Positions 25,010 through 32,000 of a stretch of 32,000 bases of DNA are shown here, in pieces. The stretch comes from Desulfatiglandales bacterium. GTDB lineage: Bacteria; Desulfobacterota; DSM-4660; Desulfatiglandales; Desulfatiglandaceae. The stretch lies in the NCBI GenBank assembly GCA_963662465.1, contig OY759599.1, positions 6,253,292 through 6,285,291 of the forward strand. The letters are read 5' to 3'. Each line of letters begins with the position of its first letter. The first letter of the stretch is position 1. The translations under genes and the position numbers were made by a program. The notes beneath the pieces are model-generated. The model saw only the letters and a list, made by a program, of their open reading frames with translations. It made no database searches and was not told the origin of the DNA.

Positions 25010-25387
25010 GTGGCGGAACAGTTCATCGCCCAACACCTCGCTTTTTTTGGAAAAAACAACGTGACCCCATCTCTAACCTATTGGTTGCGGAAAAAAAGAT
25101 CAGCCAATGCCAAGATTGATTTTGTGACGCTGTTGGATGAATCGATCGTTCCTGTCGAGGTTAAAGCCGGCAAAAGTGGTTCGCTCAAGTCCCTTTTGCA
25201 GTTCGTAAACCAAAAAGAAATCAAAACCGCCGTGCGCTTTGATTTGAATCCGCCTACCTTGCAACATGTCTCACACGCCATTCGCCAGGCCGATAAATCC
25301 CTACCGATAGCGTTTGCTCTATTATCTCTTCCGCTTTACATGATTGAGGAACTGTTCAGAATTTTTTCTGCAAGAAACGCCGGCTGA
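25010..25387 (+). pseudogene. DUF4143-type ATPase C-terminal fragment
   Basis: (KGR)VAEQFIAQHLAFFGKNNVTPSLTYWLRKKRSANAKIDFVTLLDESIVPVEVKAGKSGSLKSLLQFVNQKEIKTAVRF.. matches the family C-terminus (aEqfv.q.L......lyYW.r.....aEvDFv.....i.PiEVK.g......sL..F). Confidence 0.6.
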
Positions 25388-25562
25388 CGTGCTCAAAATG
25401 TGGTTACGAACTGAGTCTGATAAACCATATCTGAACATTTGGAAAACAGGGAAAGAAAATTTGACAAAAAATTGGGATTCGATAAATCAACCTTTTGAAA
25501 AAATTGAACTTGCAAGGATACTTTTGCCAAATCTGCCACGCAAAGCGATCTGCTGTGCCTGC

Positions 25563-25740
25563 AGTAAGGTGTTCGACTACGTGCCCATGGCCGCCGGTGA
25601 AAAACTCAAATATGTTAGTGTGGATTCTGATGGCCAGTCTCGAGACATCAGCCGGGCGCTTGCTCTGCTCGAAAAAGCATAGATCATCATGAAAGCCTGT
25701 CACACGGGCGCATCCGATTCTGCTGCATCTTTTAACCGTT
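25563..25740 (+). pseudogene. DUF4143-type ATPase middle fragment with in-frame TAG
   Basis: SKVFDYVPMAAGEKLKYVSVDSDGQSRDISRALALLEKA*IIMKACHTGAS.. is the middle region, placed after the C-terminal fragment (scrambled order). Confidence 0.5.
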
Positions 25741-26010: not shown

Positions 26011-26106
26011 TGTCTATAATGCAAGTTGTGGGGATCATATCTTTCCCAGCGATAATGTCGTACAAGTATCATCTTGTAACAACCGTAAAAAGAAAGGTGT
26101 CTGTTG

Positions 26107-26469
26107 ATGATTAAGCACGTGGAAAGAGGTTTTACCCTTATTGAACTGATGATTGTTATTGCCATTATCGGTATTCTGGCGGCCATCGCCATCCCTCAAT
26201 TTACTGAGTACCTCAAAAGGGGGAGCAATGCTGCGGCCAAAACAGACGTGCGGACTGCGTCCATTGTGGAAGAGTCGTATTTTGTGGATAATCAATCATA
26301 CGCCAACGATGTGAATGCGCTCATCAGTTCAGGGTTCAGGGCGTCGGAGAATGTCACCCTGACGGTGAGCGGCGACAACCAGGGGTATACGCTCACCAGT
26401 TACCATGACAACGGCGATGAGACCTATATCATTACAGGACCCCTGGGGAATTTTACCTTTATCAGATAA
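26107..26469 (+). CDS. type IV pilin (prepilin), copy 1
   Basis: Leader MIKHVERG then the cleavage/methylation motif G|[24 protein letters not shown]. About 112-aa mature protein with no Cys. The ORF track starts at TTG 26104; ATG 26107 is likelier (AAAGGTG upstream). Confidence 0.9.
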
Positions 26470-26588
26470 TGCGTCATTTCAATAAATAAAATATCAATTT
26501 AAAGCGAAAAGGAGGTGTTGCTTTTTTAAGGAGAGGGTGTTTTTTTTGAATCGTTTTAGTTAAAGGAAAACCAGAAAGGAGACTCAAA

Positions 26589-26963
26589 ATGTTGAGGAAA
26601 ATTAAGAAAAATAGGAATGAAAAGGGTTTTACCCTTATTGAACTGATGATTGTTATTGCCATCATCGGTATTTTGGCGGCCATCGCCATCCCGCAGTTCA
26701 CTGCGTATCGGGCCAGATCATATGACGCTTCGGCCGCATCGGACCTTAACAATGCTGCAAAGGCGCTGGTGGATTATGTGGGCAAGTATGAAGCGTATCC
26801 GACTAGCATAGATTCTCTTAGCACCAATACCTCTAAAGGTGTGACCCTTACCGGGGCTGTTAATGTTGCGGATTGGGCCATGACGGCTACCCATGCGGAG
26901 GGCAACAGAAATTATTTTCTTAGTAACGCATCCGGCAGATTAACCTACTCAGAAAAAGAATAG
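26589..26963 (+). CDS. type IV pilin (prepilin), copy 2
   Basis: AAAGGAG 7 nt upstream. Leader MLRKIKKNRNEKG then G|[24 protein letters not shown]. Divergent C-terminal domain, no Cys. Confidence 0.9.
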   Translation: MLRKIKKNRNEKGFTLIELMIVIAIIGILAAIAIPQFTAYRARSYDASAASDLNNAAKALVDYVGKYEAYPTSIDSLSTNTSKGVTLTGAVNVADWAMTATHAEGNRNYFLSNASGRLTYSEKE

Positions 26964-26982
26964 GTTTTCACCTGCATGACCT

Positions 26983-29142
26983 TTATTCTAAAGGGTGAAC
27001 CGGCATAAAAGGCGGTTCACCTTTTTTTTTGAGGGTGTCAGCCAGATCCCCATATTTTTTTGATCTGCATTGACATTCTGTGGCAAGAAGAGCGAGAAGA
27101 TCTTTCCGGTATGAGAGGCGGAGGTTGTTCAGTGGCGCGATATCTTCCGCCATCCAATCCGTGAATGTTCTAATTCGTGCCGGGTTTCCATCAAAAATAT
27201 TGAAAAAGCGGGTCATAGCTTGATCCTTTTTTTTCGCCATTCCCCTGGAAGCGTAGAGTTCTGCCATATAGAGCAGGGCGAGGGGATTATTCCCATCAAG
27301 GGCCAAAGATTTTTTGAAATGAATCAATGCTTTTCCCCCCTGATTGTTCAATTTATAAGCAAGACCCAAGAATGTCATTGTTTTGGGGTCCAGGGGGTCC
27401 TTTTGGATGGCCTTTTTAAAATTTTGGATTGCCTCATCCGTCCTTCCCCGAGCCATGAGTAGAAAGCCCAGGGCGGCATAACCTGATGCAACCCTTGGGT
27501 TGCCCTTAATGGCTTTTTGAAATTCTGATTCGGCTTCATCATAATGGCCGTTTTTCATCAACCGTATCCCTTTGTTGATGTGGGTTGGCAGGAAAAGGGG
27601 TTGAAATCGCAATGCCTGTTCATAATGAAATGCGGCCATTTTATCATCCCCCAATTTTTCATGGATTGCACCGATATTATGGTGGGTCCAGGCATTGGCT
27701 GCCAGATTGTTTTTATTCTCTTTGGAAAGGGCAATCATGTATTCTTCCAATGCTTTCAGGTGCAGATTCTTCTTTCCGTAAACCGAGCCCAGGTTGTTGT
27801 GGGGCCTGGGGAGGTCCGGGTATTTTTTGACGCAATCCAGGTATAATCTATAATCCGTTTGCCAGACCATGTTTCGCATAAATGTGCTGTGTCCCCAACT
27901 GATGGGAATCAAGACCAGCAATGCCCATAAGACCCCTTTGATGATTCCCTTGTTGGAGAAAAACCGTATTCCTTTCAGGAGCAAAATGATGATGGGCGCA
28001 AAAAAGAGCATGGAAGGAAGATAGTTTCGATGTTCAAAGATGAGTTCCACCGGGAAAATCGATCCCTCTATGAGATGATTGAGGAAAAAAAATATAATGC
28101 AAAAGCCTATGAAAGGTCGTTTTCTGAAGGCGGTCAGGGTGATTCCCAGGAGTACCAGCATTGCAAGAATGGAAATGATGGTTGAGGGGGGGGTGAAAAA
28201 ACCGGTGGAAAGAATTATATCATGCTCGAAGCATAATCGATTGGGCATGGGGTATAAGAGCAGGGAGATATAGAACAGGATCACTCTGGGTTCCGTCAAC
28301 AACCTCTCCCCCAATGTAAACCCCCTGTTCCGGTAGCCGGAAATGAGGTTTTCCGGTTTGAAAATGGATGGTCCGGCCAGAATCCATGCAAGGGCGAGGC
28401 AGATAAGGAGGATAATGCCTAGGAAAAACGCATATCGTATGAGGTTTTTTCGGGTTGCGCCCTGGATGAGAAACAGATCAAAAACCAGGAGGATGACGGG
28501 CAGCATGACGGCATTTTCTTTTGATGCGATGGCCATGAGGCCGCAGGTGAAGCATAAGAGGTAATAGATGAATTTGGATGAATTTCGTTGCGAAATTTTT
28601 CCTTTGAGATAAAAATACATGGACATAATAAAGAACAATGCCGCCATGATGGCCATCCGTTGGACGATGTAGGTGACGGCTTGGGTCTGAATCGGGTTAA
28701 GCGCCCAGAAAACAGTGGAAAAAAGAGCGACGGCATAGGCGTCAGGTCCATATCTTATTTTCAAAATGGGCAAATTCAGGGTTTCAACGATAAAGAGAAA
28801 AAGAAAGAAAGAGGCCAGAAAATGGATGGCTAGGTTGACCATATGGTAGCCGTAAACATCGGTTCCACCGGAATAATAATTGAGTGCAAAGCTCAGGCAT
28901 GCCGCAGGTCTGTATAGTTTTCCCTTTCCGTCCCAAGAGGCGTAAAAGGTTTTCTTGATATTGTCCATGCTCAATTCGGTGAGGTGGAGCGGTTGGTTTT
29001 TGAGAATATTGTTTACATCGTCAAAATGCCATGACGCGTTAAACGTGTTGGAATAGGCGAGTAAAACGAGGACAAACAGGGAGATGAAGGCAAAGAGATT
29101 TTTCCGGCATGGTGAGAGTGATATTTCGGGTTGCAGGTTCAT
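26983..29142 (-). CDS. TMTC-like GT-C membrane glycosyltransferase with C-terminal TPR repeats
   Basis: 719 aa. Many hydrophobic segments over about 430 aa. First-loop acidic motif WHFDDVNNILKN followed by YRPAACLSFALNYY..GYHMVNLAIHF. C-terminal third is TPR-like (..NNLGSVYGKKNLHLKALEEY.., ..GHYDEAESEFQKAIKGNP.., ..GRTDEAIQNFKKAIQKDP..). Confidence 0.7.
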   Translation of the reverse strand: MNLQPEISLSPCRKNLFAFISLFVLVLLAYSNTFNASWHFDDVNNILKNQPLHLTELSMDNIKKTFYASWDGKGKLYRPAACLSFALNYYSGGTDVYGYHMVNLAIHFLASFFLFLFIVETLNLPILKIRYGPDAYAVALFSTVFWALNPIQTQAVTYIVQRMAIMAALFFIMSMYFYLKGKISQRNSSKFIYYLLCFTCGLMAIASKENAVMLPVILLVFDLFLIQGATRKNLIRYAFFLGIILLICLALAWILAGPSIFKPENLISGYRNRGFTLGERLLTEPRVILFYISLLLYPMPNRLCFEHDIILSTGFFTPPSTIISILAMLVLLGITLTAFRKRPFIGFCIIFFFLNHLIEGSIFPVELIFEHRNYLPSMLFFAPIIILLLKGIRFFSNKGIIKGVLWALLVLIPISWGHSTFMRNMVWQTDYRLYLDCVKKYPDLPRPHNNLGSVYGKKNLHLKALEEYMIALSKENKNNLAANAWTHHNIGAIHEKLGDDKMAAFHYEQALRFQPLFLPTHINKGIRLMKNGHYDEAESEFQKAIKGNPRVASGYAALGFLLMARGRTDEAIQNFKKAIQKDPLDPKTMTFLGLAYKLNNQGGKALIHFKKSLALDGNNPLALLYMAELYASRGMAKKKDQAMTRFFNIFDGNPARIRTFTDWMAEDIAPLNNLRLSYRKDLLALLATECQCRSKKYGDLADTLKKKGEPPFMPVHPLE
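26994..27030 (+). terminator. Rho-independent terminator of the pilin genes
   Basis: ggtgaaccg (26994-27002) - 10-nt loop - cggttcacc (27013-27021), followed by T9 (27022-27030). Embedded in the last codons of the convergent gene 26983-29142. Confidence 0.75.
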
Positions 29143-29469
29143 GTGTTTGTCTCCATGTCAAGACTTCAATGGATATTGCCGTAAAAACAATATAGCGCTT
29201 TCAATTTTCATGTAATCCATAAAGGACATGGGGTCAAGGATGATCATTTCACCCTTTGCCGAAATAAATTATTATGAAAATCAATTTTATGCCCTGGTTT
29301 TAAAAAAAACATGAATGCCTTGAGATTCTAAATGTCATGGATCCCGCTCATGGCCAATGTCATCGGGATTGTTTTTTCCGCCGTATTTGTTTATATTATT
29401 AATGATATTTGAACATTCCGGGCGCTAAAAAAAAGCTAAGGGTTCACATAAACCGAAGGGGTCGTAATT

Positions 29470-30395
29470 TTGAAGCTGGATATTGTTATCCCCATCTACA
29501 ACGAAGAGGAAAACCTCCAGGTCCTGCACGACAGGTTGAAGCATGTATGTGACGGGTTGGAGGATGTTTCATGGCGGGTTATATATGTAAATGATGGAAG
29601 TCTCGACCGTTCACTTCATATGATGCTCGCCCAGGGTCGGGGGGATTCAAGGTTTACCACCATTGAACTTTCCCGCAATTTTGCCACCAGGCCGCCATTG
29701 CAGCGGGTCTGGCCTGTGCGGACGGTGATTGTGTGGTGACCATGGATGGCGATCTTCAGGATCCACCTGAAATCATCCCCGAATTGTTGGATTGCCGGCG
29801 GAAAGGGGCCGGCATCGTTAGAGCCCAGCGCCGCAGCCGCAAGGAAACCGGGGTGCGTCGATTGGGGTTCGATATGTTTTACAGGCTTTTTACGTGGATC
29901 AGTGATTTTCCCATTCCCCCCCATACGGGCATTTTCGGGTTACTTGATAGCCGGGCTGTGGATGAATTGAACAAGTTGCCGGAGAAAAACCGCTTTTTTC
30001 CCGGTCTCAGGAGTTGGGTCGGTCTTCGGCAGGAAGTGGTCTATTACGACCGGCAGGATCGGGCCGGCGGAAGCCCGAAGCAGTCCCTAAACAGGTTGAT
30101 CCGTTATGCTCTGGATGCGATATTCAGTTTTTCCTACAAGCCCCTGAGAATTATGACGGGTGTGGGCGCGTGTATCAGCGCTCTTGGTTTTTTCCTGGCC
30201 TGTTTTTTCATTATTAAGCGGCTCCTGGGCATTGAAATTGCTCCTACCGGGTTTACGACGTTAGTGACCGTGGTGCTTTTTCTGGGCGGCATTCAGCTTA
30301 TGGCCATCGGGTTGTTGGGGGAGTACCTGGCTAGAATTTATGATGAAGTAAAGCAGCGGCCCCTCTTTATTATCAAGAACCGTCATGGTGTCTGA
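29470..30395 (+). pseudogene. GT2 polyprenyl-phosphate sugar synthase (GtrB/ArnC/DPM1-like) with a 1-nt frameshift near 29683
   Basis: TTG start after GAAGGGG. KLDIVIPIYNEEENL..VIYVNDGSLD..IELSRNF then the frame breaks (ORFs 29470-29739 and 29733-30395). In the -1 frame it continues (G)HQAAIAAGLACADGDCVVTMDGDLQDPPE. Two C-terminal TM helices and ..GEYLARIYDEVKQRPLFIIK. Confidence 0.8.
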
Positions 30396-30398
30396 TCC

Positions 30399-32000
30399 AT
30401 GAAACTTCTCACCGCAAAAACCGTGGCGCCGTATCTTTTGATCATCACGGCATTTGCCGTGTATCTCAGTACGATGGCCCCGACGGTTTATCTGGGTGAC
30501 AGCGGCGAGTTGACCGCCGGGGCCTTTGCCCTCGGTGTTCCCCATGCCAGCGGATATCCTCTTTATTCCCTTCTGGGAAAAATTTTCTGCATGCTTCCCC
30601 TGGGAAATATCGGGTTTCGGATGAATTTGATGTCGGGGGTTTTTTTAACCCTTACAGTCTGGTTGGTTTATGTGATCATCCTGAGGGTTACATCCTCTGC
30701 TTTGCCGGCGGTAACAGCAGCCCTTTATCTTGCGTTTACGCCGCTTTTTTGGTTCCAGTGCGTATCCGCGGAGGTTTATCCCCTGCATGTTTTTTTTGTG
30801 GCATTGATGATAAAATTGCTCTGGGATTGGGATAAAAATGGGGAATTTCGTTTTTTGCTGCTTTTTGTTTTTGTGACCGGACTCAGTTTCGGCAACCACA
30901 TGCAGACCGTGATGTTGGCGCCGGGGGTTTTATTCCTCATTATTTCCAGGGATAAAAAGGTGCTTTTTCGTTTCAGGTATTTCATTGTCATAACCCTGTT
31001 TTTTGTTCTTGCCCTTACCCTCTATCTCTATCTCCCCATCCGTACGGATGCCGGCGCTGCCATTCATTGGGGTGATCCCAATAGCCTTGATCGTTTTTGG
31101 GACCATATAACGGCACGAACGCACAGGGGGAAATACATTTTCAGCAGCGGTCCTACGGAATACCTTTCGAGGACCCTGGCGGCATTGCAGCTCTTCAGCA
31201 AGCAATATGGCATCCTTCTTTTGTTTGCGTTTTGGGGGTGGCTGAAGCGTTTGCCCACGCGGTGGAAAATATCGGTTATCCTGGTGTTCATTTTTGATTT
31301 GCTCTATTCTGTTTTTTTGAATGTGATAGCGTTTAAATTTACGCCGTTTATGCTGCCCTCATTTGTCGTGATTGCCGTACTCATGGGGCTTGGTATTGCT
31401 GATGCGCTCCAAACGATGATGACTTATGATAAAATCAATATAAAACTTAAACGAACTGTTCAATTTGCCTGTTGCCTGCTGCCGGCAATCCCCTTTTTTT
31501 CCGGGTATGGCCTATGCAATCAAAGCTGTAACTACATGGCCTACGAGCATGCCGTAAATATTTTCAGGACCCCCGAATATGCCGGTACTGTTTTCCTGGA
31601 TGGGGACAATAACATCTTTCCAGCGGTTTATGGGCGGTTGGTCGAAGGAATGGGGGATGATATTACCGTATACGATCGGCTCAACCTTATTTTCAGATGG
31701 TCCGTCAATGATGCGTCGTTTAGTGTTAAGGGAAAATGGAACGAAATTAAAACCCTTGTGGAAAAGAAAATCATTGAAGAAAAAGCGGAAAAAGGGGTCT
31801 ATTATGCGGTTTTTGACCCCTTTTCCATTCCATTGCCGAGTGAATTTCGTGCAATCCCCTATGGCGTTTTGTGGAAAGTTATTCTTCGGGGGCCACCGGC
31901 AAAGACGGATGTTTCAATTGGTTTGTGGGATTACTACTATAAAGAAAGCATTCACGACCCCTTCCAGAAGGATTTCATGAATCGAAATATACGTGCGCAT
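30399..32000 (+). CDS. DUF2723 (TMEM260-like) GT-C family membrane protein, 3'-partial
   Basis: Not in ORF track (no stop in window). I translated 534 codons with no stop from ATG 30399, 3 nt after the GT2 stop: MKLLTAKTVAPYLLIITAFAVYLSTMAPTVYLGDSGELTAGAFALGVPHASGYPLYSLLGK... This is the hallmark DUF2723 N-terminus (PTV..GDSGEL..AA..LG..HPPGYPLY.LLG), followed by many TM segments. Confidence 0.75.
   Translation, partial: MKLLTAKTVAPYLLIITAFAVYLSTMAPTVYLGDSGELTAGAFALGVPHASGYPLYSLLGKIFCMLPLGNIGFRMNLMSGVFLTLTVWLVYVIILRVTSSALPAVTAALYLAFTPLFWFQCVSAEVYPLHVFFVALMIKLLWDWDKNGEFRFLLLFVFVTGLSFGNHMQTVMLAPGVLFLIISRDKKVLFRFRYFIVITLFFVLALTLYLYLPIRTDAGAAIHWGDPNSLDRFWDHITARTHRGKYIFSSGPTEYLSRTLAALQLFSKQYGILLLFAFWGWLKRLPTRWKISVILVFIFDLLYSVFLNVIAFKFTPFMLPSFVVIAVLMGLGIADALQTMMTYDKINIKLKRTVQFACCLLPAIPFFSGYGLCNQSCNYMAYEHAVNIFRTPEYAGTVFLDGDNNIFPAVYGRLVEGMGDDITVYDRLNLIFRWSVNDASFSVKGKWNEIKTLVEKKIIEEKAEKGVYYAVFDPFSIPLPSEFRAIPYGVLWKVILRGPPAKTDVSIGLWDYYYKESIHDPFQKDFMNRNIRAH

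Follow-up and report, generated by a model that had tools for sequence, protein, structure and literature searches.

We analysed a 32,000-nucleotide stretch of DNA (hereafter the window; 6,253,292–6,285,291 of an 8.16-Mb single-contig Desulfatiglandales genome), at the end of which two pilin genes lie beside genes for two membrane glycosyltransferases of the GT-C type and one GT2 glycosyltransferase. The gene order is two pilins on the plus strand, gene 1 on the minus strand, a 327-bp divergent spacer, then the GT2 and gene 3 on the plus strand. The original prediction, which was made from the letters of the window, had proposed that the three glycosyltransferase genes form a protein-glycosylation pathway with the pilins as candidate acceptors; its open reading frames (ORFs) and quoted motifs are all found in the ORF listing where it had placed them. 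The features that concern us are as follows.

26104–26469, plus strand: pilin 1, type IVa, 121 aa, mature form of 113 aa from G/FTLIE, candidate acceptor
26589–26963, plus strand: pilin 2, type IVa, 124 aa, mature form of 112 aa
26983–29142, minus strand: gene 1, 719 aa, GT-C membrane domain (about residues 1–440) and C-terminal TPRs
29143–29469, no strand: divergent intergenic region of 327 bp, with gene 1 on one side and the GT2 operon on the other, presumed to hold promoters
29470–30395, plus strand: GT2, GtrB/ArnC/PgfS-like polyprenyl-phosphate-sugar synthase with two C-terminal transmembrane (TM) helices, 309 aa when mended
30399–32000, plus strand: gene 3 (534 of its 690 codons in the window), PF11028 domain and C-terminal TPRs

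Pilins, two GT-C proteins and a GT2

Both pilins have a prepilin leader, the G/FTLIE cleavage and methylation site and a hydrophobic N-terminal helix, which are the marks of type IVa pilins. PF07963 (N_methyl) matches pilin 1 at 1.6e-10 and pilin 2 at 2e-11, and pilin 1 also matches NCBIfam PilA_Myxo (5e-18); TIGR02532 was run on pilin 1 only. Their N-terminal helices are alike and their C-terminal domains differ. The description of these pilins as Cys-less and Ser/Thr-rich is confirmed: neither contains a Cys, the C-terminal disulfide-bonded D-region is absent, and Ser and Thr together make up 22% of the C-terminal part of each, twice the 10.6% of 606 long ORFs from the same genome. Genome-wide, 13 ORFs in 8.16 Mb carry a pilin signature, two of them falsely, and from this background the chance of such an ORF is ∼0.3% per 2 kb. 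Pilins 1 and 2 are the only major-pilin-like ones, and the type IV pilus machinery is encoded elsewhere in the genome (two copies of PilT, and PilQ with a PilB-like ATPase and minor pilins). Orthologues of pilin 1 (50–56% identity) adjoin orthologues of gene 1 in relatives. In one relative, the orthologous pilin adjoins a PilR-type sigma-54 response regulator (L200:924-2312, G014:C11; Response_reg, Sigma54_activat and HTH_8), which fits the window pilins being canonical pilA genes.

Gene 1 carries WHFDDVNNILKN and YRPAACLSFALNYY, and its TPRs span residues 447–635 by Pfam. We aligned 60 sequences (alignment A1) and modelled the protein with AlphaFold2 (mean pLDDT 83.8). When this model was compared with Swiss-Prot folds, the best 14 matches were all TMTC1–4 (E 3.5e-20 to 6e-16, over residues 1–708; template-modelling score by query 0.53–0.74, 17–22% identity), in agreement with the predicted TMTC likeness. 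The membrane domain (about residues 7–460) was matched by VIA-align to AglB, Pmt1/Pmt2, ALG12, ArnT, STT3 and Pmt4 at Z 14–16; Foldseek of the whole model against the PDB returned TPR proteins only, the GT-C matches being seen with VIA-align wide. Across the 60 homologues D41-D42, R78-P79, R162, K208 and E370-H-R-N-Y374 are invariant, and D41-D42-V follows the first TM helix, forming a DDX motif in loop 1. Among the TMTC motifs M1–M7 as defined previously (PMC7801869), M1 (DD), M4 (K208/E209) and M7 (E370-H-R372-N-Y374) are invariant or nearly so in the same alignment, and M2 (SHKSYRP) is kept in part as YRP (Y77, R78/P79). M3 (RxD) is lacking, the invariant R162 being followed by M-A with no Asp, as is M5 (DW), where the loop has H307-D308. 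Pfam and NCBIfam scans of gene 1 gave TPR matches only, and its membrane domain found nothing among PDB sequences (best E = 1). The best solved matches of the TPR domain, which would be periplasmic, include PilF and PilW (Z 19–20), and NCBIfam PilW reaches 7e-19, below its cut-off. Gene 1 is TMTC-like by fold and partly by motifs, and not a Pfam-level member of that family. It had also been proposed that gene 1 is convergent with the pilin operon and shares its terminator region; the genes are convergent, with 19 nt between the stop codons of pilin 2 and gene 1, but we found no terminator-like site between these stops.

The GT2 has the motifs IPIYNEEENL and DGDLQDPPE (DGD being the DxD motif) and two C-terminal hydrophobic helices that can be read from the sequence. 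It is GtrB/ArnC-like as anticipated, and also PgfS-like, but the frame given for it is broken in the assembly, where it consists of two ORFs, 29470–29739 and 29733–30395 (89 aa and 220 aa), and is one G short after position 29682: the assembly reads aattttGccaccag where the protein sequence SRNF-G-HQAAIAAGL requires GG. We aligned public Logan contigs to this region: those of X1 and X2, two runs of the same sample, and those of X3, a run of another sample. The extra G behind 29682 was present at 100% depth in X1, X2 and X3 (36.3/36.3, 52.4/52.4 and 15.5/15.5), and over 27022–32000 the run contigs showed no further differences from the window. Because the contigs of all three runs contain the missing G, the GT2 is intact in the organism and the frame break is an assembly error. 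The mended protein matches PF00535 (1.2e-20). Among NCBIfam models it scores best with PgfS (2.1e-74; 250.5 bits, cut-off 500) and ArnC (1e-50; 172.6 bits, cut-off 529), and both scores fall short of equivalog-level identity. In relatives, intact orthologues (67–78% identity) lie directly upstream of DUF2723 genes. One 1091-nt contig of X3 joins 30397 to 30057 straight to 31077 to 30666 ('goes back 1021') within the GT2/DUF2723 region, which could reflect rearrangement at the strain level or a chimeric assembly.

Gene 3 starts 3 nt past the GT2 stop and is 690 aa in full (L001:5399-7471). Its assignment as TMEM260/DUF2723-like is borne out by a PF11028 match of 3e-33 (115.5 bits, gathering cut-off 24.2) and by its match to the human TMEM260 structure 9rql (E 3.9e-32, gene 3 residues 17–437). 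In this alignment, D34 of LGDSGEL falls on the catalytic D52 of GGDSGEL, and human TMEM260 with the D52A change is inactive (PMC10214176).

Linkage to pilin genes in related genomes

Adjacency in this one genome was the only link to pilins that the original prediction could offer. This is no longer so, since the synteny is conserved, and strongly, in three samplings of relatives (60/80, 13/14 and 13/14 loci). The samplings had different seeds and share some genomes and kin, and hence they are not independent. Starting from gene 1, a pattern scan with one genome per species gave 80 loci, with relatives 35–54% identical, from Desulfatiglandales, Desulfobacterales (including Desulfonema magnum 4be13), Syntrophales/Smithella, Syntrophorhabdaceae and Desulfobulbaceae. 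In 60 of them, the gene or the tandem array to which it belongs had a prepilin-signature ORF no more than 1 kb away: 40 convergent downstream, 16 upstream and co-directional (pilA followed by the GT-C gene) and 4 in other arrangements. In Desulfonema magnum 4be13 (NZ_CP061800.1:6462191-6476137), the pilin is convergent and lies 30 nt past the GT-C gene. Eight evaluable loci were without a pilin, and the flanks of the remaining 12 were too short. The GT-C-adjacent pilins of relatives are mostly 108–133 aa with a mean Ser+Thr content of 23%, and 46 of the 60 lack Cys in the C-terminal part. Four loci of Smithella/Syntrophales (L070, L071, L082 and L085) have up to four tandem TMTC-like GT-C+TPR paralogues, which alternate between ∼40% and ∼23% identity to gene 1; pilins stand at the array end where the flank is available.

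Starting from DUF2723, matches were present in 22 of the 151 genomes of the order (own genome counted), with a pilin up to 6 kb upstream in 13 of 14 evaluable loci. The typical orders are pilin, gene 1, GT2, DUF2723, methyltransferase, YfhO, or else pilin, GT2, DUF2723; the latter, without gene 1, was seen in three loci. Starting from the pilin, a GT-C gene (TMTC-like, TMEM260-like or PMT/PMT_2) stood beside it in 13 of 14 evaluable relatives, three more being unjudgeable. In two congeners the order is pilin, PMT/PMT_2 GT-C, GT2, and that GT2 is 84–88% identical to g11, a further GT2 at the distal end of the present cluster. GT4/Wzx polysaccharide genes occurred in at most 2 of 122 fetched related loci holding GT-C or pilin genes, and co-travel of such a polysaccharide cluster with the island is thereby ruled out. 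The original prediction was to be given up if the glycosyltransferase genes kept company with lipopolysaccharide (LPS) or exopolysaccharide (EPS) loci instead of pilins; because the pilin synteny is conserved and the GT4/Wzx genes do not travel along, it stands on this point.

The two GT2 types differ in their company. The type adjacent to gene 3 is found near 4 of the 80 gene-1 loci, and g11-like GT2s (47–67% identity) lie within 6 kb of about 15. This pattern of donor co-occurrence indicates two modules, pilin with gene 1 and GT2 with DUF2723, both of them pilin-linked, and the gene 1 module is probably fed by a g11-type synthase. The genome holds a second g11-like GT2 (G000:C1:6327650-6328531), ∼42 kb past the window end and 88% identical to a pilin-linked GT2 of congener G007; no pilin-signature ORF is near it.

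Comparison of congeners points to rapid change of the locus. In congener G010 the genes flanking the cluster encode products 82–95% identical to proteins of this genome, yet they map elsewhere in it, and the pilins, gene 1, DUF2723, PMT_2+TPR and YfhO proteins are only 44–55% identical, the GT2 being 75–78% identical. Other congeners use different GT-C subfamilies. Hence, pilins and GT-Cs, diverging between congeners, behave as a fast-diverging, exchangeable cassette. Given its other chromosomal neighbourhood in the congener, the cassette as a whole seems to have been relocated or exchanged, and the divergence suggests that a surface structure and its modifiers change fast together, in a manner comparable to the P. 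aeruginosa pilin groups. At locus L023, the cluster flanks map to 4.99 Mb of this genome.

Extent of the cluster and its proposed function

The predicted three-gene set is present but is only the start of a cluster of 11 genes and ∼17.5 kb, eight of which lie past the window end:

past the window, start overlapping the end of gene 3: PMT_2+TPR GT-C, 606 aa
past the window: methyltransferase gene
past the window: two YfhO-like proteins, 764 aa and 784 aa
L001:14740-15471 (G000:C1:6293031-6293762): conserved membrane protein of 243 aa, with no Pfam or NCBIfam family
past the window: methyltransferase-GT2 fusion
past the window: polytopic protein of 525 aa with a weak PMT_2 match
past the window, distal end of the cluster: g11, AglJ/Dpm1-like GT2 with C-terminal TM helices

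The cluster thus contains six GT-C enzymes of four kinds. We saw in it no Wzy_C/O-antigen-ligase-like gene of the PglL/TfpO type and no IPT-domain gene, and a search of the cluster, where GT2 synthases and methyltransferases are found, gave no genes for a D-arabinofuranose donor derived from phosphoribosyl pyrophosphate (PRPP). Sigma-70-like matches in the 29143–29469 spacer are weak. In the 243-aa protein, a helical soluble part is preceded by one hydrophobic helix at the N terminus and followed by two at the C terminus. At seven or more related loci (L143, L150, L155, L156, L158, L159 and L193), relatives of it (29–51% identity) adjoin a gene for DUF2723, YfhO or a methyltransferase. g11 is followed by two genes for AAA_14/DUF4143 ATPases, one for a DUF218 protein and, ∼7 kb beyond the last gene of the island, a polysaccharide cluster of GT4, GT2, methyltransferase and Wzx genes. 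AAA_14/DUF4143 sequences flank the cluster on both sides, as fragments upstream of the pilins (25010–25682) and as two full copies (L002:1781-3040 and L002:5262-6665), and these may be the borders of an inserted block. The upstream part of the window is rich in mobile and toxin-antitoxin (TA) elements.

We consider it probable, though well short of certain, that the locus belongs to an island for the periplasmic O-glycosylation of pilin, of which it forms the pilin-proximal end, with polyprenyl-phosphate sugars as donors. This reading builds on the established folds, catalytic motifs, intact GT2 and conserved pilin synteny, and proposes from them an acceptor, a sugar, a topology and an order of steps. 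Membrane-anchored GT2s at the cytoplasmic face, namely the adjacent GtrB/ArnC-like GT2, the AglJ/Dpm1-like g11 and the methyltransferase-GT2 fusion, would load a monosaccharide on polyprenyl phosphate, and a flippase would move the lipid-linked sugar across the membrane. The GT-Cs, with their first-loop acidic motif and periplasmic TPRs, would then bind the globular domain of the membrane-anchored pilin and transfer sugars to its Ser/Thr residues ahead of pilus assembly. Gene 1 would be the counterpart of Pseudomonas TfpW, and GT2 with DUF2723 would form the second pilin-linked module; the downstream GT-Cs (PMT_2+TPR, two YfhO-like and one more) and the methyltransferases would probably extend or decorate the glycan. 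A bolder form of the proposal, which we advance tentatively and regard as rather doubtful, is that the O-glycans on major pilins of Desulfobacterota are composite and perhaps methylated, and that up to six GT-Cs act on them one after another in the periplasm. These GT-Cs (TMTC-, TMEM260- and PMT-like) would come from families known otherwise as protein O-mannosyltransferases of eukaryotes, and their repertoire would be swapped between close relatives as a hypervariable cassette. If the proposal is true, pilins would be the first client to be identified for the TMEM260 and TMTC families in bacteria, and pilus glycan diversity could drive evasion of phages or predators or tune the pilus surface of syntrophs. 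The conserved gene order suggests a small, abundant and easily purified candidate substrate, the type IV pilin, for both bacterial families, and the function of TMTC-like and TMEM260-like proteins in bacteria is now directly testable.

Several observations weigh against pilin glycosylation as the function of the island. Synteny amounts to a correlation, here among genomes that are kin to one another, and gene 1 is convergent with the pilins here, without co-transcription. PF08409 (TMTC_DUF1736) does not match residues 1–447 of gene 1 up to E 10; it gave no match in the full-protein scan either and, of the 104 families matched by the 60 homologues, it is outside the 25 most frequent. The likeness of gene 1 to TfpW concerns design and genomic partner. 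A GtrA-like flippase, for which the original prediction had suggested looking just beyond the window, is not found near the cluster, the two PF04138 matches of the genome being at 4.13 and 4.79 Mb. Coverage from the metatranscriptome run X4 consisted only of conserved pilin N-termini from other organisms and is uninformative on expression. Six GT-C enzymes are many for one small pilin, and some may have other substrates; because of the GT4/GT2/Wzx cluster ∼7 kb away, the enzymes may also act on another envelope glycan in this genome.

Some of these points lead to other explanations. The island could serve general periplasmic protein O-glycosylation, with the pilin as the most abundant client or simply one of many, as with Neisseria PglL, and with the pilA linkage reflecting co-regulation and no specificity. 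TPR domains are generic protein binders, six GT-Cs of four kinds exceed the apparent need of one 113-aa pilin, and in animals TMTC and TMEM260 each have an entire class of proteins as clients (PMC7801869, PMC10214176). We nevertheless think this unlikely: the linkage to pilins is tight and has been rearranged repeatedly (convergent, co-directional, with or without gene 1), which indicates that the pilin is the selected partner, and pilin and GT-Cs diverge together between congeners. Less likely again is that an envelope glycan (LPS, EPS or a cell-wall polymer) is decorated, as by GtrABC, ArnC/ArnT or CsbB/YfhO, and that the pilin merely sits in the same variable island. The similarity of the GT2 to PgfS and ArnC above all, the YfhO-like genes within the cluster, the polysaccharide genes downstream and the mobile and TA elements upstream would suit such a role. 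However, GT4/Wzx genes are all but missing from the related loci, a pilin is within 1 kb in most gene-1 loci, and a TPR fused to a GT-C is a hallmark of protein-directed enzymes (TMTC, TMEM260, TfpW).

The TPR membrane proteins might instead be non-catalytic factors for pilus assembly or stability like PilF, PilW or Tgl, as the PilF and PilW matches of the gene 1 TPR domain would allow; this is very improbable, because those matches are generic TPR matches and the proteins have a 440-residue GT-C domain with invariant residues of catalytic type (DD, KE and EHRNY in gene 1, GDSGEL in gene 3) and lipid-sugar synthases alongside. That the GT2 is a pseudogene and its module with DUF2723 is decaying, leaving gene 1 alone functional, was suggested by the 1-nt deletion in the assembly and is refuted by the run contigs that carry the missing G, the orthologues in relatives being intact as well.

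Comparison with known glycosylation systems

Pilin O-glycosylation in the periplasm, as proposed here, is also carried out by PglL and TfpO (PilO), the latter likewise encoded beside pilA; these are Wzy_C/O-antigen-ligase-like enzymes that transfer preassembled undecaprenyl-PP-oligosaccharides en bloc. The cyanobacterial pilin-linked Ogt was set aside as a parallel, being a cytoplasmic GT41 and thus of a different enzyme class. The pairing of a GT2 that has two C-terminal TM helices with an extracytoplasmic GT-C recalls the three-component systems CsbB/YfhO, GtrABC and ArnC/ArnT, and the Pgf system of S. mutans, in which the GT2 PgfS works with the YfhO-like GT-Cs PgfM1/PgfM2. PgfS is the best NCBIfam match of our GT2, and the two YfhO-like proteins match PgfM1/PgfM2 weakly, with scores far below the equivalog cut-offs. 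Unlike the present locus, all these systems are without TPR-bearing GT-Cs and pilin linkage, and here no GtrA-type flippase is nearby.

Animal TMTC1–4 and TMEM260 are disease-linked protein O-mannosyltransferases, and TMTC1–4 act on cadherins in the endoplasmic reticulum (ER). Gene 1 resembles TMTC1–4 (GT105) in its full-length fold, in DD (M1), in YRP as part of M2, in KE (M4) and in E-x-R-x-Y followed by the residues LPS (M7), and differs from them in the missing PF08409 match and the loss of M3 and M5. In contrast to the ER enzymes of cadherins, gene 1 would work in the bacterial periplasm with an undecaprenyl-type donor and the pilin as its likely client. Gene 3 is a sequence homologue of TMEM260 over ∼420 residues and shares with it GDSGEL with the catalytic Asp and a C-terminal TPR-like domain. 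Human TMEM260 O-mannosylates the IPT domains of cMET, RON and plexins, and bacterial homologues are mentioned only in passing (PMC10214176). Gene 3 differs in being translationally close-coupled to a GT2 donor synthase, and no IPT domain is present. Our literature searches found no substrate for any bacterial TMTC or TMEM260 relative, and nothing relevant on bacterial DUF2723 or on glycosylated pilins of Geobacter, Syntrophus or Desulfobacterota. The original prediction had called the bacterial counterparts essentially uncharacterised; this is too strong for the TMTC-like design, of which TfpW is an example.

By design and genomic partner, the closest characterised system is TfpW (AAM52060.1), the pilin D-arabinofuranosyltransferase of P. 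aeruginosa strains of group IV (Pa5196, PA7). This polytopic GT-C enzyme is 646 aa long, with 11 predicted TM segments, a DDX motif in loop 1 that is required, and a C-terminal TPR that is periplasmic by PhoA fusions; its gene is immediately downstream of pilA, and known homologues are confined to Gamma/Betaproteobacteria (bioRxiv 10.1101/2020.04.19.049825). It is needed for modification of the pilin with D-arabinofuranose at several Ser/Thr residues from a polyprenyl-phosphate sugar donor (bioRxiv 10.1101/2020.04.19.049825), which is decaprenyl-P-arabinose made by a PRPP-derived pentofuranose route (PMC11194591). Gene 1 likewise is a GT-C with a loop-1 DDX and a C-terminal TPR beside a pilin gene, and the order pilA–tfpW recurs in 16 of the 80 gene-1 loci. 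The TfpW motif YX6PFX7P is only partial in gene 1, as Y291-x6-P298-M299-P300 (Y291, P298 and M299 invariant) with H307 at the second Pro. An Atlas search led to Pseudomonadota TPR membrane proteins of 634–646 aa (score 0.90), which is a lead only. Furthermore, gene 1 is convergent with the pilin whereas tfpW is downstream of it, the donor route here has GT2 synthases instead of PRPP-derived genes, and the pilin is joined by as many as six GT-C enzymes and by methyltransferases. The host organisms here are anaerobes of the Desulfobacterota and include syntrophs, in which pili are investigated with cell-cell interactions in mind. The TfpW design of a GT-C with TPRs beside pilA is thus extended to these anaerobes from a few Gamma/Betaproteobacteria.

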